Source: an uncultured bacterium (GTDB lineage Bacteria; JAHJDO01). From it: DNA of 64,000 nt. Within the stretch, counting starts at the first letter, position 1, and each line of letters opens with the position of its first letter. Below, piece by piece: positions 14,924 through 64,000 of this stretch. The stretch covers positions 15,645-79,644 of the forward strand of contig CAYTGU010000005.1 of NCBI GenBank assembly GCA_964437505.1, read 5' to 3'. Position numbers and translations under genes: made by a program. A model generated the notes under the pieces. That model did not search any database. It saw only the letters and a program-made list of their open reading frames with translations, and was not told the DNA's origin.

Positions 14924-16012
14924 ATGTTGAATGTTGTTATTATGGCAGGTGGAAAAGGGGAAAGATTTTGGCCAAAGAGTAGAGAAAAAAGCCCTAAACA
15001 GCTATTGTCAATAGGTTCAAAAAATACCATGCTTCAGGAAACAGTAAAAAGAGCGCAAGCTCTAACTTCTTCAGAAAATATTTTTATAGTTACACGGGCT
15101 GAGTTGGAGGGTGAGATAATTAAGCAGATTTCTCCTATTCCAAAAGAAAATATTATAAATGAACCGTTTGGTAGAAATACTGCAGCTGCAATAGGTCTTG
15201 CAAATATAGTTATTCAGAAGAGAGATAGTATTTCAAGAGATAAAAGTTCCATTATGGTTGTGTTGCCGGCTGACCATATCATAAAAGACGTCAGACAATT
15301 TAAAAAGACAATAGCTGTTGCCTCTATAGCGGCTGAAGAAGGACATCTTGTTACAATAGGTATAAAACCAAACTATCCTGAAACTGGTTACGGATATATT
15401 CATAGGGGGAACAAGGTATCTAGTGATATACAGGGTGTTTTTAAAGTGAAAGAATTTAGAGAAAAGCCTGATTTGAAAACTGCAGAAGAGTTTTTAAAAA
15501 AAGGGGAGTATTATTGGAACAGCGGTATGTTTGTATGGACAGGGAAAGAAATAGAAAAAGCATTTAAAAAGTATATGCCTAAACTTTCTCACGCTCTAAA
15601 GGTTATAGACAATTCTCTTTCATCTTCGTACCTGGATAAAGTTATAAAAGAGGAGTATGAGAAACTGGAGAAGGTCTCAATTGATTATGGAGTTATGGAG
15701 AAGGCAGAGAATGTAAGCGTTATAGAGGGGCTTTTTGACTGGAATGATGTGGGCTCATGGCTAGCTCTGGAGAAAGTTTATAAAAAAGATGATAATAATA
15801 ATATCGTTGTGGGAGATTATGTAGGCATTGATACAACTGATTGCATATTAATAGGGGATAAGAGTCCAATAACTACTATGGGTGTTTCGGATTTGATTAT
15901 TGTAAACACAGGAGATGTTGTACTTGTCTGCAAGAAAACAGAGGCTCAGAAAGTGAAAGAATTATTGAAACATATTAAGAAGAATAAAAAACTTTCCAAA
16001 CTAGTTAAATAA
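14924..16012 (+). CDS. manC: Mannose-1-phosphate guanylyltransferase (no cupin/PMI domain).
   Basis: Contains VIMAGGKGERFWP...PKQLL, the nucleotidyltransferase signature of ManC/CpsB. Confidence 0.85.
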   Translation: MLNVVIMAGGKGERFWPKSREKSPKQLLSIGSKNTMLQETVKRAQALTSSENIFIVTRAELEGEIIKQISPIPKENIINEPFGRNTAAAIGLANIVIQKRDSISRDKSSIMVVLPADHIIKDVRQFKKTIAVASIAAEEGHLVTIGIKPNYPETGYGYIHRGNKVSSDIQGVFKVKEFREKPDLKTAEEFLKKGEYYWNSGMFVWTGKEIEKAFKKYMPKLSHALKVIDNSLSSSYLDKVIKEEYEKLEKVSIDYGVMEKAENVSVIEGLFDWNDVGSWLALEKVYKKDDNNNIVVGDYVGIDTTDCILIGDKSPITTMGVSDLIIVNTGDVVLVCKKTEAQKVKELLKHIKKNKKLSKLVK

Positions 16013-20011: not shown

Positions 20012-21249
20012 TATATTCGCACCTGCCCATTGCCGAATATAAGATATTTGTAGGTTGTGAGTTCTTCCAGTCCCATAGGTCCTCTGGCATGCAGCTTGCC
20101 TGTACTTATACCAATTTCAGCGCCCAGTCCAAATTCGCCGCCATCAGTAAATCGGGTAGATGAGTTGACGTATACAGTAGCAGAGTCTACTTCTTTCAGA
20201 AACCTGTCTGCAGATGAACTGTTTTTTGTAATTATAGCGTCAGAATGACATGACCCATATGTGTTAATGTGATTGATTGCCTCCTGTTCTGAGGAGACTA
20301 TTCTGATGGAAAGTATTAAGTCAAGGTATTCAGTTGACCAGTCTTTCTTCTTTGCCAGTTTTATTCCAGAAACAAGTTTTTTTGTTTCTCTACAGCCCCT
20401 TATCTCTACACCTGCATTCCTGAATATCTCTATCATTTGAGAAAGAAAGACTTTGGCGATATCTTTATGAACAAGAAGTGTTTCCATTGCATTGCAGACT
20501 CCCGGACGCTGAACTTTTGCGTTAAGACATACAGTTTTTGCAATATCAATATCTGCATGTTTATCAACATAAGTGTGGCATATTCCATCACTATGTTTAA
20601 TTACAGGTATGGTGGAGTTCTTAACAACAAATTTTATAAGACCTTTTCCACCGCGTGGAATTATAAGATCAATATATTCATCCAGTTTTAACATACGATT
20701 TACCATTTTACGGTCAGTGCTTTTTACCATTTGTATGCTATCAGAAGGAACTTTTGTTTTTCGCAGGCTGTTTATCATTATTTGATATAAAGCAATATTT
20801 GAATTTATGGATTCTTTTCCTCCGCGAAGAATAACAGCATTTCCAGCTTTCAGGCAGAGGCTTGCTGCGTCCACAGTGACATTAGGTCGGGATTCATAGA
20901 TTATACCTATAACACCAATAGGCACACTTACTTTTTCTATCCTTAATTTATTTGGACGGGTTGTCTTACTGAGTATTTTACCAACAGGGTCTGGGAGTTT
21001 AGTTAATTGCTTTAGGGATTTACAAATATTTTCTATTCGCTCCGAAGTTAAAGTTAGACGATCTATTAAAGCAGGGGACAGGTTGTTTCCTTTTGCACGT
21101 TTAATATCAATGATATTTGCAGATAGGATTCTAGATTTATTTTTTTCAATACCATTGGCAATGACCAGAAGAGCTTTGTTTTTTTCTTCTGTTGAAAGAG
21201 TTGCCAATACTCTTGATGCATCCTTTGCATGCTGAGCGATTTTTTTCAT
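20011..21249 (-). CDS. proA: Gamma-glutamyl phosphate reductase (glutamate-5-semialdehyde dehydrogenase).
   Basis: 412 aa aldehyde dehydrogenase fold with a ProA-type C-terminus. It overlaps proB in operon fashion. Confidence 0.88.
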   Translation of the reverse strand: MKKIAQHAKDASRVLATLSTEEKNKALLVIANGIEKNKSRILSANIIDIKRAKGNNLSPALIDRLTLTSERIENICKSLKQLTKLPDPVGKILSKTTRPNKLRIEKVSVPIGVIGIIYESRPNVTVDAASLCLKAGNAVILRGGKESINSNIALYQIMINSLRKTKVPSDSIQMVKSTDRKMVNRMLKLDEYIDLIIPRGGKGLIKFVVKNSTIPVIKHSDGICHTYVDKHADIDIAKTVCLNAKVQRPGVCNAMETLLVHKDIAKVFLSQMIEIFRNAGVEIRGCRETKKLVSGIKLAKKKDWSTEYLDLILSIRIVSSEQEAINHINTYGSCHSDAIITKNSSSADRFLKEVDSATVYVNSSTRFTDGGEFGLGAEIGISTGKLHARGPMGLEELTTYKYLIFGNGQVRI

Positions 21250-22418
21250 AATATTACCAGATTATCCCTGTGTATTACTTCATCATAGGACTTATAACCG
21301 AGTATATCTTCAATTCGGGAAGTCTTATTCCCTTTAATTTTTTCCACATCTTTGTCTGAATAGTTGACTAGCCCTCTTGCAAATTCGCTACCTCCGGTAT
21401 CAGCAATCCCTACTACATCTCCTATGCTGTACTTTCCTTTTGAAGCAATAATGCCTGTTGATAAAAGGCTCTTACCTTTGTTTATTAAAACTTGTTTTGC
21501 CCCTTCATCAACAATGATTGTTCCTCTTATATAATGAGCAAATGCTATCCATTTCTTTCGACCAGTTTTTCTTTTATCAATTTTTGGGAGGAAAATCGTA
21601 CCGACTTTTTCTCCATTCATTATTCTAGAAAGAGTATTCTTCTTTAGTCCATTAGCTATTATTACAGTTACACCTGACTGGGTTCCCATTTTGGCTGCAG
21701 TTATCTTTGTCAACATTCCTCCAGCCCCTGTTTTTGAGTCAGAAGCATACGATTCTATTTCAGATCGTATTTTGTCAACTTCAGATATAAGAGAAGCTTG
21801 TTTGCTTTTTTTAGGATCAACAGTAAACAGTCCATCAATGTTAGAAAGCATAATTAAAAGGTCTGCATCTAAGAGGTTAGCAACAAGTGCGGAAAGAGTA
21901 TCATTATCTCCAAACTTAATTTCGTCAGTTGCAACAGTGTCATTTTCATTAACAATAGGAATAACGTTCTCTTTAAATAGTTCCATTATTGTATTGCGTA
22001 TATTTAGGTATCTAAGTCTGGATTTAAAATCATCTCTTGTGAGCAGAATCTGCGCAGTATGATATCCTCTTTTTTTAAAGATCTCTTCATAAGTATGCAT
22101 TAGCTTATTCTGCCCTACGGCAGCAATAGCTTGTTTTTTTGATATTGTCAATGAATGCTTCTTAATACCTAAAGCTTTCATACCTGCGCCTATAGCTCCG
22201 GAGGACACAATAATTACTCGAATATTTTGTTTTCTAAGTTCAGCTATTTCCGTGGCAATATTGGATATTCTAGCTCTGTTTAACCCAGTGTTTGAGGTCA
22301 GCACATACGTACCTATCTTAATAACTACACATTTAGCGTTTTTTATTAACTCTTTTCTTTTCACAGCGCTTTGCCTTCTCATCGCCTTTACAGCGTTTGA
22401 GTAATTAAAATTATTCAT
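21246..22418 (-). CDS. proB: Glutamate 5-kinase with a C-terminal PUA domain.
   Basis: 390 aa amino-acid kinase fold (VIKIGT...) plus PUA. Its stop overlaps the proA start. Confidence 0.88.
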   Translation of the reverse strand: MNNFNYSNAVKAMRRQSAVKRKELIKNAKCVVIKIGTYVLTSNTGLNRARISNIATEIAELRKQNIRVIIVSSGAIGAGMKALGIKKHSLTISKKQAIAAVGQNKLMHTYEEIFKKRGYHTAQILLTRDDFKSRLRYLNIRNTIMELFKENVIPIVNENDTVATDEIKFGDNDTLSALVANLLDADLLIMLSNIDGLFTVDPKKSKQASLISEVDKIRSEIESYASDSKTGAGGMLTKITAAKMGTQSGVTVIIANGLKKNTLSRIMNGEKVGTIFLPKIDKRKTGRKKWIAFAHYIRGTIIVDEGAKQVLINKGKSLLSTGIIASKGKYSIGDVVGIADTGGSEFARGLVNYSDKDVEKIKGNKTSRIEDILGYKSYDEVIHRDNLVIL

Positions 22419-55281: not shown

Positions 55282-56244
55282 TTAATTCAGCAATTTTTCA
55301 ACGTGATTTATCAAATCTTTTACACCTTCTCCGGTCAGCGCAGAAATAGCAGATATATTCTTTGAATGCAGCTTTCTTTTAAAATCTTTAAGATTGACTT
55401 GCGCAGTAGTCATATCCATCTTATTAGCAACTATTATTTGGGCTCGATCACCTAAATTGTGTAAAGATAATTCCTTATTAATAGCATTAAATTTTGAATG
55501 TGAGTTTTTATCAGACATATCAATAAGATGTAGAATGATTTTTGTTCTGCTGATATGAGCCAAAAACTTGTTCCCCATTCCTTTTCCCTTGTGCGCACCT
55601 TCTATTAACCCTGGAATATCGGCAGCTACGAAGGATGAGTCATGTATTTTTACAACTCCCAAAAGCGGCTCTATGGTGGTAAATGGATAATCAGCTATTT
55701 TAGGCCTGGCATGTGATATGCGAGAAAGCAAAGTGGATTTTCCTGAGTTTGGATATCCAACCAGCCCAACATCAGCGATTAGGCGTAGCTCTAATCTAAT
55801 ATCCTTTTCTACTCCTTCTTTGCCTTGTTCTGCGATTCGCGGAACGCGTCTGGTAGATGTGGCAAATTTGGCATTTCCTTTTCCTCCTCTTCCGCCACGC
55901 GCAACTATGACACTATCAGCAGGATGACTAAGATCTGCAATAATTCTATTATTTTCTCTTATAATTGTTCCAACAGGTACATTTAATATAAGGGCAGGAC
56001 TGTTTTTGCCAAACATTTTTTTGCCTTTGCCATGTTGGCCATGTTTGGATTTGATATGTCTTTTATGAAGAAAATTGATAAGAGTTCTTTGATGTGGGTC
56101 AGCTTCAACAATGATGTCTCCTCCCTTTCCACCATCTCCTCCGTCAGGACCGCCTTTGGGAACGTGTTTTTCCCTGCGGAAGCTTACACATCCGTTACCA
56201 CCGTCGCCTGCTTTTACGTGTATGACAACATCATCAACAAACAA
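55282..56244 (-). CDS. obg: GTPase Obg (short form lacking a C-terminal extension).
   Basis: FVDDVVIHVKAGDGGNGCVSFRREKHVPKGGPDGGDGGKGGD Obg fold, followed by a GYPNSGKST G1 motif. Confidence 0.9.
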   Translation of the reverse strand: MFVDDVVIHVKAGDGGNGCVSFRREKHVPKGGPDGGDGGKGGDIIVEADPHQRTLINFLHKRHIKSKHGQHGKGKKMFGKNSPALILNVPVGTIIRENNRIIADLSHPADSVIVARGGRGGKGNAKFATSTRRVPRIAEQGKEGVEKDIRLELRLIADVGLVGYPNSGKSTLLSRISHARPKIADYPFTTIEPLLGVVKIHDSSFVAADIPGLIEGAHKGKGMGNKFLAHISRTKIILHLIDMSDKNSHSKFNAINKELSLHNLGDRAQIIVANKMDMTTAQVNLKDFKRKLHSKNISAISALTGEGVKDLINHVEKLLN

Positions 56245-56245
56245 A

Positions 56246-56689
56246 TTATGCCTTTATTACCCATGTTTTTACTTCTGCTGTTACTTTTGGGTGAAGCTTG
56301 ATTTGGATATTAAAAACACCTAACTTTTTTATTGGTTCTTTTAATATGATTTTCTTCTTATCAATCTCTATTCCTTCCTGCTTTAGCATGTTTGCAATAT
56401 CAATAGAAGTAACAGAGCCATACATTTTTTCATCTTCTCCAACTTGAACAGGGATGGTTAAAGATAAACCAGAAAGCTTTTTTGCTATCTCTTCAACTCC
56501 TGCTTTTTCCTCCTGTATTTTTCTTCCTTTAGCTTTTTTAATTTGTTCTGCAACTTTCTCAGCACCTGGAGTTGCTTTAAGAGCTAATCCGTGTGGTAAT
56601 AGATAGTTTCTGCCATAGCCGTCTGCAACCTTTACTATATCTCCTATGCTTCCTAATTTGTCAATATCCTGTTTTAAAACAACCTTCAT
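56246..56689 (-). CDS. rplI: 50S ribosomal protein L9.
   Basis: MKVVLKQDIDKLGSIGDIVKVADGYGRNYLLP, the L9 N-terminus. Confidence 0.9.
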   Translation of the reverse strand: MKVVLKQDIDKLGSIGDIVKVADGYGRNYLLPHGLALKATPGAEKVAEQIKKAKGRKIQEEKAGVEEIAKKLSGLSLTIPVQVGEDEKMYGSVTSIDIANMLKQEGIEIDKKKIILKEPIKKLGVFNIQIKLHPKVTAEVKTWVIKA

Positions 56690-56701
56690 TTTATTCTCCT
56701 C

Positions 56702-57649
56702 TCACATTATACTATTTAGAATGGTTTTTGTCTTATTGAGACTTTTTTTGTCTTCTACATTGAGTATCTGAATACTCTTATCAATTCTTGAGATAAGTCC
56801 TGATAATACTCTCTTTGGTCCTACTTCGATAAATGTTCTAATTCCTGCTGATATCATGTTTTTAATTGAATCTTCCCATAGTACAGAGCCTGTTATTTGT
56901 TTAGTCAATGTCTCTTTTATATCAGAGGGCTTTGTTATCGGTTTTGCAGAAACATTTGCATATACGGGAATATTTGCAGTTTTAATGTTAAAATTTTGCA
57001 GTTCATCGTATAATTTTTCCTTTGCAGATTGCATTAGACAGGAATGAAACGGACCGCTCACTGCTAGTTTGATTACTTTTCGCACTCCTGCGGCAGTAGC
57101 TTCTTCTATTGCCTTATCAATAGCTTTATACTGGCCGGATACGACAATTTGCCCGGGACAATTATAATTAGCGATTTGTATAACTCCATATTTAGATGAG
57201 ATTTTGCAAATATTTTTAACTTGTTTAGTATCTAATCCAATAATTGCTGCCATTATGCCAGGGTGTTGCTTGGATGCTTCCTGTATAAATAGACTTCTTT
57301 TCTTAACAAGTAATAATGCGGATTCCATATCCAATGCATTTGAAGCTACCAAAGCGGAGTATTCCCCTAAACTGTGACCTGCAACAAAAGAAACAGAGTC
57401 TTTTTTAAGAAACTTATTAAGTACTGCTAAACAGGCAATACTCGCTGTAAGTATCGCTGGCTGGCAATTCTCTGTAGCACTCAAATTTTCTATAGGACCT
57501 TCAAAACACAATTTTGCAATATCATATCCGAGAACTTTATTTGCACATTGAAAGATATCTTTAGCACATGAATAATTATGGTAAAAGTCTTTTGCCATTC
57601 CAACATATTGGGAACCTTGACCGGGAAACACATACGCGATTTTCTTCAC
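56702..57649 (-). CDS. fabD: Malonyl-CoA:ACP transacylase.
   Basis: Contains FPGQGSQ and the GHSLGEYSAL active-site serine motif. Confidence 0.9.
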   Translation of the reverse strand: MKKIAYVFPGQGSQYVGMAKDFYHNYSCAKDIFQCANKVLGYDIAKLCFEGPIENLSATENCQPAILTASIACLAVLNKFLKKDSVSFVAGHSLGEYSALVASNALDMESALLLVKKRSLFIQEASKQHPGIMAAIIGLDTKQVKNICKISSKYGVIQIANYNCPGQIVVSGQYKAIDKAIEEATAAGVRKVIKLAVSGPFHSCLMQSAKEKLYDELQNFNIKTANIPVYANVSAKPITKPSDIKETLTKQITGSVLWEDSIKNMISAGIRTFIEVGPKRVLSGLISRIDKSIQILNVEDKKSLNKTKTILNSIM

Positions 57650-57650
57650 T

Positions 57651-58640
57651 CTACCACCTTATAATAGCTGATGCCCATGTAAGACCAGCGCCAAAAGCGT
57701 CCAGAAGTATTATCTGTCCATCTTTTAATTTTCCCGAAGCTGCTGCTTCAGCTGTTGCTATTGGTACTGAAGCACCTGAAACATTTCCATATCTGGTAAC
57801 ATTTATCCATACTTTTTCCAAAGGAGCGTTAAGTCTTTGCGCTAAAGCATTTATAATTCTCAAGTTTGCCTGATGAGGAATAACAAGATCTATATCTTCG
57901 TTTTTTAGATTACATTCAGAAAGCACCTTATCTGCGGCACTTGTCATTGCCCTAACAGCAAGTTTAAAAACAGAATTCCCGTTCATTTTTAGAAAATGCA
58001 ATTTGTCATCTACTGTTTTATGTGTTGCAGGAAATTGTGAACCTCCGCCAGGCATATTCAGCAGATCCCAAGCTGACCCATCAGCACCAAGATATGAACC
58101 CAAGATAACCCTCCTGTTATTCGCGGCGCGTCCAATAACAGCGGCACCTGCTCCATCTCCAAATAGTACACAGGTTGTACGATCTGTCCAATCTGCAATT
58201 CTGGAGAGCGTATCTGCGGCAACAATTAAAACTCTTTTAAATGTATTACTTTCAACAAAACTTTTTGCCATTGTTAAAGCGTAAATAAAACCACAGCAGG
58301 CTGCGTTGACGTCAAATGCGCACACAGTTTTAGCTCCTATTTTATCCTGAAGAATGCACGCGGTGGAAGGGAATGGCATATCAGGGGTTATAGTAGCAAC
58401 AATAATACAATCTATTTGTTTTACATCGACTCCAGCATTTTTAAGAGCTTTCTGAGAAGCAAACATAGCAAGGTCAGAGGTGGTATGTTTATCATCAATT
58501 ATACGTCTCTCTTTTATACCTGTTCTTGTTGTAATCCACTCATCAGACGTATCCACCATTTTTTCAAGGTCTGCATTCGTAAGAATTTTTTCCGGCACAT
58601 AAAAACCAGTTCCCAAAATACCTACTTTAATATTATCCAT
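57651..58640 (-). CDS. fabH: 3-oxoacyl-ACP synthase III.
   Basis: 329 aa with AACCGF (active-site Cys) and the GNTSAASVP-like motif (GNVSGASVP). Confidence 0.9.
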   Translation of the reverse strand: MDNIKVGILGTGFYVPEKILTNADLEKMVDTSDEWITTRTGIKERRIIDDKHTTSDLAMFASQKALKNAGVDVKQIDCIIVATITPDMPFPSTACILQDKIGAKTVCAFDVNAACCGFIYALTMAKSFVESNTFKRVLIVAADTLSRIADWTDRTTCVLFGDGAGAAVIGRAANNRRVILGSYLGADGSAWDLLNMPGGGSQFPATHKTVDDKLHFLKMNGNSVFKLAVRAMTSAADKVLSECNLKNEDIDLVIPHQANLRIINALAQRLNAPLEKVWINVTRYGNVSGASVPIATAEAAASGKLKDGQIILLDAFGAGLTWASAIIRW

Positions 58641-58644
58641 TTTT

Positions 58645-59631
58645 TTAGTTTCTTAACCTCTCTTTTATATGTTCATTAACATGGTTGTTTACGAATTTCT
58701 CAGCTACCAAAATGCTGTTTTTGATAGCCAGAGAAGAAGAATTGCCATGAGCTTTTATACATACACCGTTAATTCCAAGAAAAGGCGCACCGCCATATTC
58801 TGCATAGTTCAGACTTTTTTTGAAGTTCTTATAAGCGCCTCTACTCAACATAGCTCCAATTTTAGAGAGAAAACTACTTTTCAGTTCATTGCGTAGTTTA
58901 AGATATATATTTTCTCCCAGTCCTTCAGTAGCCTTAAGGATTATATTGCCAATAAAACCATCACAAACAATAACATCAACTTTACCATTAAAAATATCTC
59001 TTCCCTCTACATTGCCAACAAAGTTAATTGGCGCTTTTTTTAATTCTTCATATGCTTTTTTTGTTAAGTCATTTCCTTTATGTTCCTCTTCTCCAATGTT
59101 CAAGAGACCTACTTTTGGAGTTCCTTTTTTCAAGATATACTTGCTGTATTCATTTCCCATTATTGCAAATTGGTAAAGGTTCAAAGGGCTACAGTCCACA
59201 TTTGCGCCTACATCAAGCAGTAGGGAAGCTTCACTTAGAGTAGGCATCAAGATAGCGATTGCTGGGCGCTCTATACCCTCTATTGTTCTTATATAGATTG
59301 CAGCAGATGCCATGTATGCTCCTGTATTGCCAGCTGATACTACAGCGTCTGCTTCTTTATTTTTAACCAGCTCTATTGCTTTGATCATAGATGAATCTTT
59401 TTTTCGCCTGATAGCTTGAGAAGGAGACTCATGCATTGCTATGACTTCAGATGCATGTTTAATCTGAATATTGGAACCAGTATATTTACGTTTTGTTAAC
59501 TCCTTTTTTATTATTTTTTCATCACCAACCAGTATCAGATCAAATGGCTTGTTTTTGGCAGCATCTAAAGCCCCTTCTATAACCACAGAAGGACCTTTAT
59601 CAGCGCCCATAACATCTATGGCTATTTTCAT
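58645..59631 (-). CDS. plsX: Phosphate:acyl-ACP acyltransferase PlsX. The ORF is open to 59655, but the internal start MKIAIDVMGAD at 59631 is preferred because it avoids overlap with rpmF.
   Basis: Contains the IAIDVMGADKGP PlsX N-terminal signature. Confidence 0.85.
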   Translation of the reverse strand: MKIAIDVMGADKGPSVVIEGALDAAKNKPFDLILVGDEKIIKKELTKRKYTGSNIQIKHASEVIAMHESPSQAIRRKKDSSMIKAIELVKNKEADAVVSAGNTGAYMASAAIYIRTIEGIERPAIAILMPTLSEASLLLDVGANVDCSPLNLYQFAIMGNEYSKYILKKGTPKVGLLNIGEEEHKGNDLTKKAYEELKKAPINFVGNVEGRDIFNGKVDVIVCDGFIGNIILKATEGLGENIYLKLRNELKSSFLSKIGAMLSRGAYKNFKKSLNYAEYGGAPFLGINGVCIKAHGNSSSLAIKNSILVAEKFVNNHVNEHIKERLRN

Positions 59632-59632
59632 A

Positions 59633-59818
59633 TTATGAAGCCTTCTTAATTTCAATTACTTTTTTACCATTATAGTACCCACAATGAGGACAAACTATAT
59701 GTGGGGATTTGACCTGATTGCAATGTGAACATGTACACATTGCAGGTAATGACAATTTTTTATGTGTGCGTTTTTTATCCCGTCTTGATTTTGAGAACTT
59801 TCTTTTTGGAAGTGCCAC
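59633..59818 (-). CDS. rpmF: 50S ribosomal protein L32 (GTG start).
   Basis: 61 aa. MALPKRKFSKSRRDKKRTH matches the L32 N-terminus, and a C..C...C..C zinc ribbon is present. An AAAGGAG RBS precedes it. Confidence 0.85.
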   Translation of the reverse strand: MALPKRKFSKSRRDKKRTHKKLSLPAMCTCSHCNQVKSPHIVCPHCGYYNGKKVIEIKKAS

Positions 59819-59848
59819 TGTTATTCTCCTTTTTTTCTAAGTTGTTTC

Positions 59849-59868
59849 GGGTCGGATTTATCCGACCC
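59849..59868. other. Perfect 8-bp hairpin GGGTCGGA-ttta-TCCGACCC between the pta stop and the rpmF start.
   Basis: Read directly. There is no U-tract on the minus (transcribed) strand, so it is not a classic intrinsic terminator. Confidence 0.5.
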
Positions 59869-59886
59869 CTACATTTATTCTTAATA

Positions 59887-60882
59887 CTAGGCAGAGTGAG
59901 CTTGTATTGCTGCAATAGCAGATATATTAACAATATCATCTACATTGCATCCCCTGGACAGGTCATGCGCAGGTTTTCGAAGTCCCTGCAGTAGGGGGCC
60001 TAGAGCTTGTGCTTTTGCTAAACGTTGAGTAAGTTTATACGATATATTACCTGATTCTAAATTCGGGAATATTAATACATTAGCTTTCCCTGCAACATTA
60101 CTCTGGGGTGCCTTTATTTTTGCAACTTCCGGAACAATAGCAGCATCTGCTTGTAGCTCTCCGTCAATTTGTAGATCGGGACACATTTTTCTTGCAAGTT
60201 CAGTAGCTTTTATTACTTTATCAATAAGACCATGAGATGCGCTTCCATTTGTTGAGAATGAGAGCATAGCAACCCTTGGCTCAGATTTTATGAACATACA
60301 GGCTGTTTTTGCGGACGCTATGGCGATACTAGCAAGCTCTTCGGATGTTGGATCTGGTACAATGCCTGCATCAGCGTATATAAAAATACCATGCTCTCCA
60401 TAAACGCAGTCTGGAACAATCATAACAAAGCAGCTTGAGACTACTTTTATACCATTTGCAGGACCTATTAGCCAGATTGCAGCACGCAAGACATTTGCAG
60501 TAGAATTTACTGCTCCTGATACTGAACCGTCAGCCATGCCTTTTCTTACCATCAAAGCGGCGTATAAGAGAGGCTGCTTAATATGTGTACAGGCGTCTTC
60601 TTTACTTGTGCCTTTATGTTTCCTGAGATTATAAAATAATTCAATGTCTTCATCTGTTACTTTTTGTTTTGGATCAATTACTTTCACGTTTTCTATATTT
60701 ATACCAGCATGTTTTGCTACCTTAATTAGATTCTCTCTTTTTCCTAATAGGATAGGGTCAGCAATCTTCTCTTTTTTCAGTATGGATGCAGCTTGTATTA
60801 CTCTTAGATCCTGTGACTCAGGTAGGACTATTCTTTTCCTGTCAGACTTTGCTTTATTTCTGATTTCTTCTATTAAATTCAT
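59887..60882 (-). CDS. pta: Phosphate acetyltransferase (short Pta, PTA_PTB family).
   Basis: 331 aa with a RIVLPESQD N-terminus and a C-terminal DLSRG..V.DIVN motif. Confidence 0.8.
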   Translation of the reverse strand: MNLIEEIRNKAKSDRKRIVLPESQDLRVIQAASILKKEKIADPILLGKRENLIKVAKHAGINIENVKVIDPKQKVTDEDIELFYNLRKHKGTSKEDACTHIKQPLLYAALMVRKGMADGSVSGAVNSTANVLRAAIWLIGPANGIKVVSSCFVMIVPDCVYGEHGIFIYADAGIVPDPTSEELASIAIASAKTACMFIKSEPRVAMLSFSTNGSASHGLIDKVIKATELARKMCPDLQIDGELQADAAIVPEVAKIKAPQSNVAGKANVLIFPNLESGNISYKLTQRLAKAQALGPLLQGLRKPAHDLSRGCNVDDIVNISAIAAIQAHSA

Positions 60883-60971
60883 ATCAGATTTTCCTATTTA
60901 AAAGGTCTCACACTATACCAACTCACTCTAGTTTTGTCAAAACAAAATCCTGTTATAGCTAAAAATTTCGC

Positions 60972-61000
60972 TTGACATCTTCTGATAGGCTGTATACAAT
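60972..61000 (+). promoter_or_regulatory. Near-consensus sigma70 promoter (TTGACA-N17-TACAAT) with a perfect 10-bp palindrome TTGTATACAA (a GntR-type GT..AC operator) overlapping the -10.
   Basis: Read directly 27 nt upstream of the GntR regulator start. Confidence 0.55.
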
Positions 61001-61026
61001 TGTAATGCAATATAAAAAGGTTCTAG

Positions 61027-61656
61027 ATGAAAGATACATTAATAAAACAATTATATAAAAAAATTAGACTAAGCATTCTGAATGGTGCGATAAAGCCTCA
61101 TGAGAGAATTGTTGAACAGGTTCTCGCCAAAAAATATAAGGTTAGCAGGACTCCTATTAGAGAAACTCTGCGTTTGTTAGAAAACGAAGGATTGATCACA
61201 GTTATCCCTAATGTGGGAACATTTGTAAAACAACATTCTCTGGATGAGATAAAACAGATTTATGAAGTACGAGCATTATTAGAAGGTTGCGCTGCAAGAT
61301 TAGTTTCTCTGCGTATCAAAGATGAGGAAATAAAAAAGCTGGAGAATATTGCTAAAAAGAATGAAGAAGCTATACAGAACATGGATTGTGATACTTTGGT
61401 GAAAACAGACAGGGAGTTTCATGAGTTCATTATGAAAAAGTGTGAAAATAAAGAACTTGCCAGGATTATGGAATTATACGATTTTCAAACAACAAGTTTA
61501 TATACCAAAAGTATTAGACATGGGGAATATTCAGGAAAAAATCTAAGCTATTCACATCTGCCAATTATAGAAGCTATTAAAAAAAGAAACCCAGATTTGG
61601 CAGAAAAACTGGCAAGAAGACATATAGAGGAAGCAAAAGAGAGGTTGCTGAGGTAA
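61027..61656 (+). CDS. GntR-family transcriptional regulator (FadR/FCD subfamily).
   Basis: 209 aa with an N-terminal winged HTH (ERIVEQVLAKKYKVSRTPIRETLRLLENEGLI) and a helical FCD-like C-terminal domain. Confidence 0.8.
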   Translation: MKDTLIKQLYKKIRLSILNGAIKPHERIVEQVLAKKYKVSRTPIRETLRLLENEGLITVIPNVGTFVKQHSLDEIKQIYEVRALLEGCAARLVSLRIKDEEIKKLENIAKKNEEAIQNMDCDTLVKTDREFHEFIMKKCENKELARIMELYDFQTTSLYTKSIRHGEYSGKNLSYSHLPIIEAIKKRNPDLAEKLARRHIEEAKERLLR

Positions 61657-61708
61657 TGTCTTCCAGCTGCTAATGGTTCACAGTTGATTTAAAAGATTAA
61701 TCCAAATA

Positions 61709-61963
61709 ATGATGAAACAAACATACAATCTTGGGATAATTGGTAAAGTAGATGCAGTGATACTTGCACGTGATGATGGAGAAAATCATCTCTCTATGGC
61801 AAAGCCTTTTATTGAAAAGGATATCCCTATATTAATTGATAAACCCCTTACTGATAATGCAGAAGATCTGAAGGAATTTATACAATATTATGAAAAAGGG
61901 AAATTAATTATGTCATGCTCAAGTATCTTGCGGTTTACTGGGGACTGCGCAATATTCGTGTAA
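61709..61963 (+). pseudogene. Fragment of a Gfo/Idh/MocA-family oxidoreductase. The N-terminal Rossmann region is truncated and the C-terminal domain is missing.
   Basis: ...VDAVILA...LIDKPLTDNAEDLKEF resembles the EKPLA region of Gfo/Idh/MocA. The ORF is only 84 aa. Confidence 0.5.
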
Positions 61964-62184
61964 ATGCAGTAGTTCCAGGAGCATTTCCGCATTCAAAAGC
62001 ACGATGGTGTGCAGATAATCCAGAGTTCCCAGCTTTTTTAGAGCGTTTGGCAGATAAGGTACCGCTTGGACGTATAGGACGTCAGGATGAAATGGCTGGC
62101 GCAGTTATTTTTCTTGCTTCTGACGAAGCGTCGTATGTAACGGGACACACTTTAGTTGTAGATGGTGGATGGACAGCGTGGTAA
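61915..62184 (+). pseudogene. C-terminal fragment of an SDR-family dehydrogenase, fused or juxtaposed to the preceding fragment.
   Basis: IRVNAVVPG...PLGRIGRQDEMAGAVIFLASDEASYVTGHTLVVDGGWTAW is a canonical SDR C-terminus. The N-terminal cofactor-binding half is missing. Confidence 0.6.
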
Positions 62185-62209
62185 TCAATATAATCAGAGG
62201 AGAGAAAAG

Positions 62210-62992
62210 ATGAAAATGCGAGCAAGCAGGGTACTGCAGAAACTTCGTGCAGGTGAAATAGTGAGTTGTTTTAAATTAAACTTGTCCTGTGGTCGTGCCG
62301 CAGATATTGCAGCCATGAGTGAGTTTGATTGTCTCTGGCTGGATATGGAACATGTGCCTAGTGACTGGTCTGTAATAGAAAAACAAATCTGGGCGGCTAA
62401 AGCTCATGACGTTGATGTCATGGTGCGTGTATCCCGTGGTGGGTACAGCGATTACATCAAACCTTTGGAATTGGATGCTTCTGGTATCATGGTGCCTCAT
62501 ATCATGAGCCTGGCAGATGCAGAGAACGTTGTCAGGATGACTAGATTTCATCCTGTTGGTCGCCGTCCCGTTGACGGTGGCAATACAGATGGTGCATACG
62601 GCAAGATTGATTTTGTCAAATATCTTAAACAGGCAAATGAACAAAGATTTGTCGCCGTACAGATAGAGGACCCTGAACCGTTGGATGACTTGGAAGCCAT
62701 TGCTTCTCTTGAAGGTATAGACATGATCTTTTTCGGACCAGCGGATTTTAGCCATGGGATTGGCGCACCTGGTGAATGGAATTGTACCAAGTTGGTGGAG
62801 ACACGCAAGCGCATAGCTGAAGTCTGTACAGAGCATGGAAAATTTGCAGGTACTATTGGGAGCATTGATAATTTAAATGAGCTTATCAGTATGGGTTATC
62901 ACTTTATTAGTGTAGGCGCCGATGTAGTGGGTCTCGGTCAATATTGTGACAGGGTAATGATGGAATTCAGAAATGCATTATTAGGTAAATAA
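62210..62992 (+). CDS. HpcH/HpaI-family aldolase (2-keto-3-deoxy-sugar-acid aldolase, e.g. KDR/HpaI-like).
   Basis: About 260 aa with a TIM-barrel class II aldolase pattern (...LWLDMEH..., ...VRV...). A CAGAGGAGAG RBS precedes it. Local GC is visibly higher. Confidence 0.7.
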   Translation: MKMRASRVLQKLRAGEIVSCFKLNLSCGRAADIAAMSEFDCLWLDMEHVPSDWSVIEKQIWAAKAHDVDVMVRVSRGGYSDYIKPLELDASGIMVPHIMSLADAENVVRMTRFHPVGRRPVDGGNTDGAYGKIDFVKYLKQANEQRFVAVQIEDPEPLDDLEAIASLEGIDMIFFGPADFSHGIGAPGEWNCTKLVETRKRIAEVCTEHGKFAGTIGSIDNLNELISMGYHFISVGADVVGLGQYCDRVMMEFRNALLGK

Positions 62993-63263
62993 ATTTACTT
63001 AAAATGTCATCGCTTTCGCTTATTTGTGCTTTACGCCTTATATTGCAGATTGTTTTATTACCTCTGGATCTTTGAAAATTTTTTCTAACATGGTAGCCTC
63101 CCTTTCTGGCTTTTATAGCCAATAGGAGAGTACCATATTATGTTAAGCTATTAAAGAAACGAATAATCGTAACTGTCGTGTACACCCAGATTTATTCACA
63201 GAGCGAAACTTACCATAACCCAGTGCTTATCATAAAACACATGATCAGATCAAGAAAGCCGGG

Positions 63264-63623
63264 ATGATTGAAGAGGCAAAGTTTGTTTTGTCTTGCGATG
63301 AATACAAGTATGAGATCAGCGAAGCTATGCGTGATGCTGCTAAGAAAACAAAGACTGGCATTGGAGCGAATCTCGCGCTATTAGACGCAGCAAGGCGATA
63401 TGAAACCAGAGTATGGTGCGATATCTATAACCTTGGCGGAAGTCATGGTCGAATTGGTAATGCTTATCGCCATTTAGCGGATCACGTAAATTTTGGTAAC
63501 AGTTTAGCTGTGGAAAGTAATGGAAAAATTTGGATGAGAAAATCGGCAACTAAATTTGAAAGAAGTAAAGATAATAGTCAGGGCGATCTTGTTTGTAGCA
63601 GATTAAATTGTCTTGAAAGTTAA
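63264..63623 (+). CDS. Hypothetical protein (119 aa), possibly a gene fragment.
   Basis: An ORF with no recognised family. It lies in a degraded GC-richer region next to a transposase remnant. Confidence 0.3.
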   Translation: MIEEAKFVLSCDEYKYEISEAMRDAAKKTKTGIGANLALLDAARRYETRVWCDIYNLGGSHGRIGNAYRHLADHVNFGNSLAVESNGKIWMRKSATKFERSKDNSQGDLVCSRLNCLES

Positions 63624-64000
63624 GGAGTTAATCCTTTGGTAAGAAGAGTTATGAGAACTTGTTTTGGGTCCAAGCCTTTGAGTTTGGCAGTTTGGATAAT
63701 AGTTGAAATAAGAGATACGTTCTTGGTTCTCTGGTCAGAGCGATTGCCGAAGATAATTTCGTTCAGCAAGCACTTTGGAAGGGGATTCTCCGTTAAGATG
63801 AGGACAAGATTTGGAGAAAGGGCAATGCTGAACTCTTGCTGCAACAGGATGAGAATAACTCATTCTTTGAATTCGCCTTTTTTAATTAATTGGACGTTTA
63901 TGTCTGTAAGTTCTTCAATGAGGTCTCTATGATGATAGTAATTGTTGAGAAGTTTTTGAACTTGCTTGCGAAGTTTAGGAGGAATAGTCGTTCTCTTCTT
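63620..64000 (-). mobile_element. IS66-family transposase (TnpC) C-terminal remnant. The reading frame is interrupted by an in-frame TGA at 63860-63862 and continues past the window edge.
   Basis: ...NEIIFGNRSDQRTKNVSLISTIIQTAKLKGLDPKQVL matches the conserved IS66 TnpC tail (YLFAGSDEGGERAA.IYSLIGTAKLNGIDPEAYL). The upstream in-frame part is ...LIKKGEFKE*VILILLQQ. Confidence 0.55.

Follow-up and report, generated by a model that had tools for sequence, protein, structure and literature searches.

Remnants of a widespread aldolase gene cluster in a probably eroded locus past pta of an uncultured bacterium

We analysed a stretch of 64,000 nucleotides (hereafter the window; positions 15,645 to 79,644 of contig CAYTGU010000005.1, assembly GCA_964437505.1) from an uncultured low-GC bacterium of the lineage JAHJDO01, and in particular the genes that follow pta in its last part. 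These are, in order, an intact gene for a GntR-family regulator with an FCD domain, a stub of a Gfo/Idh/MocA-like oxidoreductase gene, a stub of a short-chain dehydrogenase/reductase (SDR) gene, an intact gene for an HpcH/HpaI-family aldolase, a remnant of a small hypothetical gene (orf119) and the remnant of an IS66-family insertion sequence (IS). The region is very probably the eroded remnant of a widespread, uncharacterised catabolic cluster built around a highly conserved HpcH-family aldolase, and its place is a variable chromosomal region that starts just past the pta promoter. It appears to be an old accessory locus, eroded by small deletions that presumably arose at microhomologies and by an IS now itself in decay; this is ordinary genome decay and no new system. 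The survivors are one enzyme gene (aldolase) and one regulator gene (GntR/FCD). The inventory was based on an open reading frame (ORF) listing of the window together with Pfam and NCBIfam scans. A 210-kb JGI contig (L001; window coordinate = L001 coordinate + 52209) reaches 9 kb beyond the window end, and the DNA available for copy and paralog searches was thus 73 kb. Four other public contigs, 99.3-99.9% identical to the window, encode an identical aldolase protein and carry the same stubs, so the structure of the locus is not an assembly artefact.

The erosion was most evident in two short ORFs. The 84-aa ORF at 61709-61963 matched GFO_IDH_MocA (E 6.9e-6) over profile positions 62-116 of 120 only, and the 89-aa ORF at 61915-62184 matched the end of adh_short_C2 (positions 153-236 of 236, E 3.8e-24). 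The Gfo stub was 83% identical over 64 aa to its best intact relative, a 307-aa gene product in locus L010, and the SDR stub was 71% identical to residues 175-263 of an SDR in the Omnitrophota metagenome-assembled genome (MAG) L027. The Gfo-like remnant proper (61709-61926, plus strand) keeps codons 1-11 and about 94-152 of an ancestral gene of about 310 aa. The SDR remnant (61927-62184, plus strand) keeps, according to Pfam and the L027 alignment, the last ~89 of ~260 codons. A preliminary description of this DNA, made from the sequence alone, had recognised the SDR C-terminal fragment correctly. It had also named the right family for the 84-aa ORF but had taken it for a plain N-terminal fragment, which it is not, because codons 12-93 are deleted.

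Alignment with L010 showed that these Gfo-like codons were lost in frame (246 bp), including the conserved GNGHPYSW segment. Both endpoints of the deletion read ATTGG(A/T) in L010, and the window retains a single ATTGGT at 61739-61744. The junction of a second deletion was placed by codon-level comparison with L010, L027 and the Lentisphaerales MAG L036. The Gfo-like part can be followed as far as MSCSS (about codon 152) and the SDR part from KYLAV onward (about codon 175 of 263), the two being in different frames; about 1 kb has been lost between them. Since Gfo homology extends to 61927 and SDR homology begins at 61915, the two overlap at 61915-61927, and the likely junction is the AAGTAT microhomology at 61921-61926 (plus strand), inside the interval 61915-61963 where a deletion junction had been suspected.

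The SDR stub begins about 10 residues past the catalytic YGVAK motif and is without the GGAGYLG cofactor motif, so that neither the Gly-rich cofactor motif nor the catalytic Ser...YxxxK of a functional SDR is present. The Gfo stub is without its N-terminal core (the GNGHPYSW segment) and without the whole C-terminal half, and does not have the complete N-terminal nucleotide-binding and C-terminal domains of a functional Gfo/Idh/MocA protein. As cofactor-binding and catalytic motifs are missing in both stubs, neither can be an enzyme. Judged by these comparisons, both are pseudogenes of full-length genes, reported as small ORFs by gene callers. The case is chiefly of use to annotation, the 84-aa and 89-aa 'genes' called in every assembly being such stubs. 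A search of the SDR stub against 5.8 billion proteins gave no near-identical intact parent, only the stub itself and short or truncated ORFs at no more than 66% identity, and for this reason the deletion could not be dated.

The aldolase gene next to the stubs (62210-62992, plus strand) is full length, as the preliminary description had it, and encodes a class II aldolase of 260 aa. Its start is probably 62210, preceded by the Shine-Dalgarno-like sequence GAGGAGAG at 62197-62204. The protein belongs to the HpcH/HpaI family, with a match to PF03328 (E 2.8e-27, 95.9 bits against a cut-off of 25) over profile positions 13-215 of 221, and it covers positions 5-248 of 249 of TIGR02311. Like the class II pyruvate aldolases HpaI, GarL, YfaU and RhmA, it can be aligned over its full length, both with the HpaI, GarL and RhmA models and, end to end, with the solved HpaI, YfaU and GarL structures, and it has the same His, Arg, Glu and Asp residues. 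In a phmmer alignment with 2vws, its His48, Arg73, Glu152 and Asp178 (the acidic pair by alignment offset) corresponded to H49, R74, E153 and D179 of YfaU. We take E153 and D179 to be metal ligands and R74 and H49 to be catalytic residues, as in the YfaU/HpaI structures. The aldolase differs from these enzymes in being only about 30% identical to any solved structure, in scoring under every NCBIfam equivalog cut-off (HpaI 122 vs 369, GarL 113 vs 407 and RhmA, NF007521, 96.3 vs 441 bits), and in belonging to a separate subfamily with its own neighbour set.

The nearest aldolase relative, on a contig of 38.8% G+C content (GC; L100), was 90% identical in amino acids and 89.7% in nucleotides. Homology between this contig and the window was limited to the aldolase gene, which in L100 follows an aldo-keto reductase (AKR) gene and precedes EamA and FGGY genes. 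Among aldolases with usable context, that of L010 was closest, at 80% identity. Nei-Gojobori estimates for the window aldolase against L100 were dN 0.052, dS 0.288 and dN/dS 0.18. Five core genes compared in the same way with the sister genome (GCA_030652805.1, locus L099), which is about 89% identical to the window in nucleotides, had dS of 0.28-0.50 and dN/dS of 0.10-0.18. The aldolase values are like those of core genes, which fits presence of the gene in the lineage since the species split, under purifying selection. Over 11.8 kb, the window and the four other assemblies differed at 9 positions. All of them fell in a 61-bp patch of the aldolase gene (62443-62503, plus strand) and all were synonymous third-codon positions; the patch probably reflects recombination with a diverged allele, or a mixture of strains in one of the assemblies.

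Reconstruction of the ancestral genes by homology, which the preliminary description had recommended, gave the order Gfo-like, SDR, aldolase, as found in intact relatives in L036. The order in L036 is Gfo-like (323 aa), SDR (257 aa), aldolase, SDR and AKR. The first SDR gene of L036 ends about 60 bp ahead of the aldolase homology, and both order and spacing are the same as in the window. A blastx search of 62993-63495 with E values up to 10 found no remnant of the second SDR or the AKR. The ancestral locus would have had a Gfo-like oxidoreductase gene (~310 aa), an SDR gene (~260 aa) and the aldolase gene in this order. An in-frame loss of 246 bp between ATTGGT repeats, presumably promoted by microhomology, would have shortened the Gfo-like gene, and a loss of roughly 1 kb, presumably at the AAGTAT microhomology, would have joined it to the SDR tail in another frame. 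The aldolase gene would have been kept, with its metal-binding and catalytic residues, its ribosome-binding site and purifying selection. A two-gene IS66-family element (DUF6788 and transposase) would have entered the small hypothetical gene downstream and afterwards lost 1.2 kb of its transposase gene to become non-autonomous, probably with a rearrangement or deletion at its left flank.

Several points weigh against this history. A close intact Gfo-SDR pair is not known (the best relatives are at 71% for the SDR and 83% for the Gfo-like protein), so the ancestral order was taken from distant relatives. The neighbours of the closest aldolases differ, being a Gfo-like gene and a second Gfo-type gene ahead of the aldolase in L010 and an AKR gene ahead of it in L100. 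L100 may or may not come from the sister species, and the match of its divergence with that of core genes is therefore only suggestive. Finally, dN/dS averages both lineages, and a recent relaxation of selection in the window lineage would be compatible with the value of 0.18.

None of the usual partners of the aldolase is intact here, the genes for the Gfo-like protein, the two SDRs and the AKR being either destroyed or missing; partner paralogs were not found in the 73 kb available, and the adjoining orf119 and a URO-D-family gene are broken too. These observations could mean that the whole locus is dead, with the aldolase a relic that has outlived its pathway partners and has so far merely escaped a disabling mutation. 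We consider this unlikely, because the aldolase frame is full length with conserved active-site residues and a Shine-Dalgarno-like sequence before it, its dN/dS is 0.18, and the strain differences are synonymous in nine cases out of nine. Intact relatives, at 80-90% identity, are found among quite different neighbours, which suggests that no fixed neighbour set is needed for the gene to work. In the eroded cluster that we favour, the aldolase is probably still produced and functional, an orphan pyruvate aldolase.

Members of the aldolase subfamily occur in more than ten phyla, at 63-80% identity, and their hosts include Phycisphaerae, Lentisphaerales, Verrucomicrobiota, Bacteroidota, Paenibacillus, Armatimonadota and Omnitrophota. 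We compared 85 loci with a subfamily aldolase (L005-L089) and counted homologs of the stubs within 7 kb. Gfo stub homologs were present in 41 of the 85 loci, and SDR stub homologs likewise in 41 (61 copies). AKR genes were found in 44 loci and class-III aminotransferase genes in 23, with Amidohydro_2 fusions in 8 more; BNR-like, NagA-like, transporter and kinase genes were sporadic neighbours. The counts identify a recurring cluster, uncharacterised and spread over many phyla, that consists of the HpcH aldolase, an AKR, one or two SDRs, a class-III aminotransferase that is sometimes fused to Amidohydro_2, and a Gfo-like protein with the GNGHPYSW motif. None of the conserved partners matched an NCBIfam model at its curated cut-off, and a literature search for the combination of aldolase, Gfo, AKR, SDR and aminotransferase found no paper. 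The cluster is a side result that may interest specialists.

The preliminary description had assigned the locus to a pathway of the L-rhamnonate/KDR-aldolase type. In the non-phosphorylative L-rhamnose and L-fucose pathways, LRA1-4 are an SDR dehydrogenase, a lactonase, a dehydratase and an HpcH-type KDR aldolase. The window locus resembles these pathways in the adjacency of SDR and HpcH-family aldolase, and an Amidohydro_2 gene lies 5 kb downstream. It differs in that no dehydratase was seen, in that the aldolase and SDR score far under the Lra/Rhm equivalog cut-offs, and in that the conserved partners of the subfamily are AKR, Gfo-like protein and aminotransferase. Among the Pfam-named neighbour families of the 85 related loci there was no sugar-acid dehydratase family, and neither L-rhamnonate dehydratase nor lactonase genes were present in the window or L001. 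Without a dehydratase among the named neighbours, the rhamnonate/KDR assignment is not supported.

The left edge of the variable region was defined by comparison with the sister genome. The window is collinear with L099 from obg to pta, and nucleotide homology runs over 55286-60942 and then stops. Past pta, L099 carries PMT_2, HD and ArgS genes, and the window instead has the GntR gene onward; none of the L099 genes reappear within the next 12 kb on the window side. The stop of homology at 60942 coincides with the -35 element of a pta promoter-like site (60940-60912, divergent), and the adjoining interval (60943-61026) contains a gntR promoter-like site, TTGACA-17-TACAAT, at 60972-61000. Both sites agree with the consensus at 11 of 12 positions. 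A search of 60500-64000 against Rfam with E values up to 0.1 gave no match, and terminator-like sites were also not found there. Beyond the IS the non-syntenic region goes on for at least 8.5 kb and includes further catabolic genes and a further split gene. The same 12-kb stretch contains genes for GHL10, an M24 peptidase, a split URO-D-family protein, DHDPS, AP_endonuc_2, Amidohydro_2 and a second GHL10. The URO-D-family gene is broken into N-terminal and C-terminal ORFs of 125 and 210 aa (L001 15319-16408, equivalent to window 67528-68617), its intact counterpart in L071 being about 356 aa long. The L027 aldolase cluster includes a protein 57% identical to the Amidohydro_2 protein of this stretch.

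Two observations concern the syntenic side. In L099 obg is followed directly by proB, whereas in the window proB (21246-22418) and obg (55282-56244) are 33 kb apart (22419-55281), which amounts to a large insertion or rearrangement compared with the sister. Strain L002 differed from the window at 41 positions, and 32 of these were within the 1.5 kb upstream of 59887 (58352-59886, plsX to rpmF); the next 4 kb were almost identical, and the differences thus form a patch of locally raised divergence.

The regulator gene noted in the preliminary description is present and intact (61027-61656, plus strand; 209 aa). Its product has both the N-terminal winged helix (GntR, PF00392, E 3.5e-17, 62.3 bits) and the C-terminal FCD ligand domain (PF07729, E 8.3e-24, 84.8 bits) above the cut-offs, and belongs to the FadR/FCD subfamily of GntR regulators. 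Its top NCBIfam match was phnR_burk, at 113 bits under a cut-off of 271.5. The description had further treated the GntR gene as part of a pathway signature. FCD-type GntR genes occurred in just 4 of the 85 aldolase loci, at 24-31% identity, and we rejected the regulator as a member of the cluster. With such genes so rare in aldolase loci, what links regulator and aldolase in the window is their adjacency, and the former might perhaps control the latter.

Base composition was examined because a GC-richer island had been proposed, to be checked by windowed GC and tetranucleotide deviation. Composition was indeed not uniform. The 1-kb segment from 61951 had a GC of 0.45, the maximum of the 64 kb (mean 0.368, standard deviation (sd) 0.021). 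The values at the first, second and third codon positions (GC1/GC2/GC3) were 0.633/0.467/0.300 for the SDR stub and 0.556/0.387/0.387 for the aldolase gene, against a mean of 0.463/0.336/0.298 for 58 other genes (GC3 sd 0.037). GC3 was thus 2.4 sd above the mean in the aldolase gene and at background in the GntR gene (0.281), the Gfo stub and the SDR stub. The dinucleotide signature of 61.5-63.5 kb was 98.9, just over the 95th percentile of 92.7, and three other parts of the window were more extreme. Tetranucleotide correlation was lowered by about 1-2 sd between 60 kb and at least 72 kb. The GC excess therefore stands as a peak but lies mostly at codon positions 1 and 2, that is, mostly in amino-acid composition, and gives little compositional support for recent import. 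The case shows that a local rise in GC need not mean recent transfer; here it mostly reflects the amino-acid make-up of conserved enzymes.

On these grounds it is quite improbable that the region is a recent GC-richer island carrying an L-rhamnonate/KDR-aldolase-type pathway under GntR control, now decaying and bounded by the IS66 remnant. Such an island would account for the GC peak as the window maximum and for the absence of the region beside pta in the sister species; RhmA, GarL and HpaI are the nearest named aldolases, and the closest aldolase relatives are on contigs of 44-46% GC, matching the 44% of the gene. However, the excess is at codon positions 1 and 2, with SDR stub GC3 at 0.300 against 0.298 and host-like values in the GntR gene and Gfo stub, and the dS between the aldolase and L100 equals that between core genes and the sister. 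In addition, the RhmA score is 96 bits against 441, and the conserved neighbour families named by Pfam include no sugar-acid dehydratase. The IS, which had been seen as the island boundary, sits inside the non-syntenic stretch, which starts at 60943 and extends at least 8.5 kb beyond it. Recently acquired genomic islands are recognised by atypical composition at synonymous sites, by absence from close relatives and by mobility genes or direct repeats at their borders. Here the region was absent from the same site of the sister genome, GC3 was near background, aldolase dS equalled core-gene dS and the IS was internal. Judged from GC3 and divergence, the locus is probably old in its lineage and not a recent import, and the aldolase appears to be an old gene under selection. 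What stands of the earlier account, whose inventory was largely confirmed, is the decaying accessory locus with its IS66-family remnant and with stubs that are remnants of full-length genes; sister homology ends at 60942. Recent horizontal acquisition had been read from GC that codon positions and divergence do not bear out.

Both short ORFs are called in every assembly, and other databases contain many short SDR C-terminal ORFs. It is nevertheless hardly credible that they are genuine small genes, or their fusion an assembly artefact. The Gfo/SDR junction has an identical base sequence in five independent assemblies, the closest relatives of both stubs are full length, the SDR stub has no NAD(P) motif or catalytic Tyr/Lys and the Gfo stub no GNGHPYSW segment or C-terminal half, the ORFs overlap in different frames, and the best non-self short SDR match is just 66% identical.

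The IS66-type remnant occupies the minus strand from 63496 to the window end at 64000 and continues to about 64512, as shown by blastn against L091 and L101. A first profile scan had given, at the window edge, a weak signal (19 bits, E 6e-4) for the final 41 positions of an IS66 transposase model. The C-terminal transposase remnant read there in the preliminary description was confirmed, with 63587-63769 encoding codons 436-496, the last 61 residues (82% identity to an intact transposase, E 4e-24), and the suggested search past the window end yielded the rest of the element with both inverted repeats (right, 63496-63512; other, about 64496-64512). Transposase codons 1-40 are at 63744-63863 and are joined out of frame to the tail at a deletion junction at 63751-63757. 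They are preceded by an intact ORF of 101 aa for a DUF6788 protein (63860-64165, minus strand; Pfam E 2.3e-15). The TGA that had been taken for an in-frame stop in the transposase is really the stop codon of this ORF, whose frame happens to be that of the transposase tail. Compared with the elements of L091 (2124 bp) and L101 (2238 bp), the window IS consists of three collinear segments and is without 1.2 kb of transposase sequence equivalent to L101 positions 1004-2214. The DDE_Tnp_IS66 domain, found in the intact relatives at E values of 1e-35 to 8e-39, is deleted here, only residues 1-40 and 436-496 being left, so the window IS is a non-autonomous remnant of an IS66 member. Further copies of it were found neither in the window nor in L001 (73 kb).

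Related copies in different contexts defined elements of 2.1-2.2 kb with the ends GTTATAGTTTAGTTA... and ...TAACTAAACTGTTAC. The terminal repeats, GTTATAGTTTAGTTA and GTAACAGTTTAGCTG, begin with GTWA, and the L098 copy is flanked by a perfect 8-bp target duplication, CCATAAAA. At the window IS both inverted repeats are present, and the flanks, GTCAAGAA and CAAAATTT, differ. The lack of a target-site duplication points to a probable rearrangement or deletion at the left flank.

The relatives of DUF6788 are free-standing proteins of about 101 aa. We compared the loci L090-L098 and L101-L113 and regarded a locus as testable where the contig continues past the ORF. In 20 of 21 testable loci the DUF6788 stop overlapped by 4 bp (ATGA) the start of a DDE_Tnp_IS66 transposase of 497-502 aa. 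A distant member (L113, 35% identity) had the same coupling, but to an unrelated DDE_Tnp_1_4 transposase. The protein has a zinc-ribbon-like CX4CX2C...H pattern, and the window ORF keeps all 16 invariant residues despite the deletion in the transposase gene. We lean towards the view that DUF6788 serves insertion sequences as a portable accessory gene, encoding a small zinc-ribbon-like protein coupled to the transposase start. If this is true, the domain would gain a functional context for the first time, and the IS66 family a subgroup with two ORFs; a literature search on DUF6788 found no paper. The coupling is a further side result of possible interest to specialists.

The upstream ORF being DUF6788, the tnpA/tnpB genes of canonical IS66 elements were not present. 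In the ISBst12 group, which is without tnpA/tnpB, ISDge4 has terminal inverted repeats GTGACT... and GTAACT... and an 8-bp target duplication (PMC12898284). The elements described here resemble this group in their GT-initial repeats, in the 8-bp duplication of L098 and in the DDE_Tnp_IS66 transposase of about 500 aa of the intact relatives. They differ from both the three-ORF layout of IS66 and the single-ORF layout of ISBst12 in their additional upstream DUF6788 ORF, and fit neither.

Two DUF6788/IS66 copies (L104 705-1214 and L108 676-1182) matched only transposase residues 1-170 though their contigs continue, and deletion derivatives of the element seem common. Both are JGI contigs with Ga numbers near that of L001, which may mean the same project. 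In L101 a second IS left end (2471-2564) lies 74 bp past the right end of the intact element, and the IS is thus multi-copy and probably active there; the GC of that contig, 36.6%, matches the window.

A third gene remnant, overlooked in the preliminary description, adjoins the IS. The 119-aa ORF (orf119, 63264-63623) overlaps the IS end by 128 bp, and its non-IS part (63264-63495, plus strand) is the remnant of a small conserved hypothetical gene; the gene called here is a gene remnant joined to an IS end. Its first 77 codons have homologs of 105-229 aa (P0294-P0300, E 1e-18 to 3.5e-11) that run on beyond the point where the IS end begins. Since the IS end replaces the sequence from codon 78, the IS was inserted into the orf119 gene. 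The 3' part of orf119 was not found on the other side of the IS, where 24 bp separate the IS end from the start of GHL10. In keeping with the absent target duplication, this suggests that the flank has undergone a deletion or rearrangement. Searches of Pfam, NCBIfam and PHROG gave no match for orf119, and matches to TPR proteins were rejected as compositional ('GNAYRHL' stretch). Compared with its homologs, orf119 is without a Cys-rich stretch of about 17 aa. Its original start is lost; the strain variant P0173 retains 19 extra N-terminal residues that are degraded in the window. The family consists of hypothetical proteins with a conserved Cys-rich motif, and one of them, P0295, carries a SWIM zinc finger.

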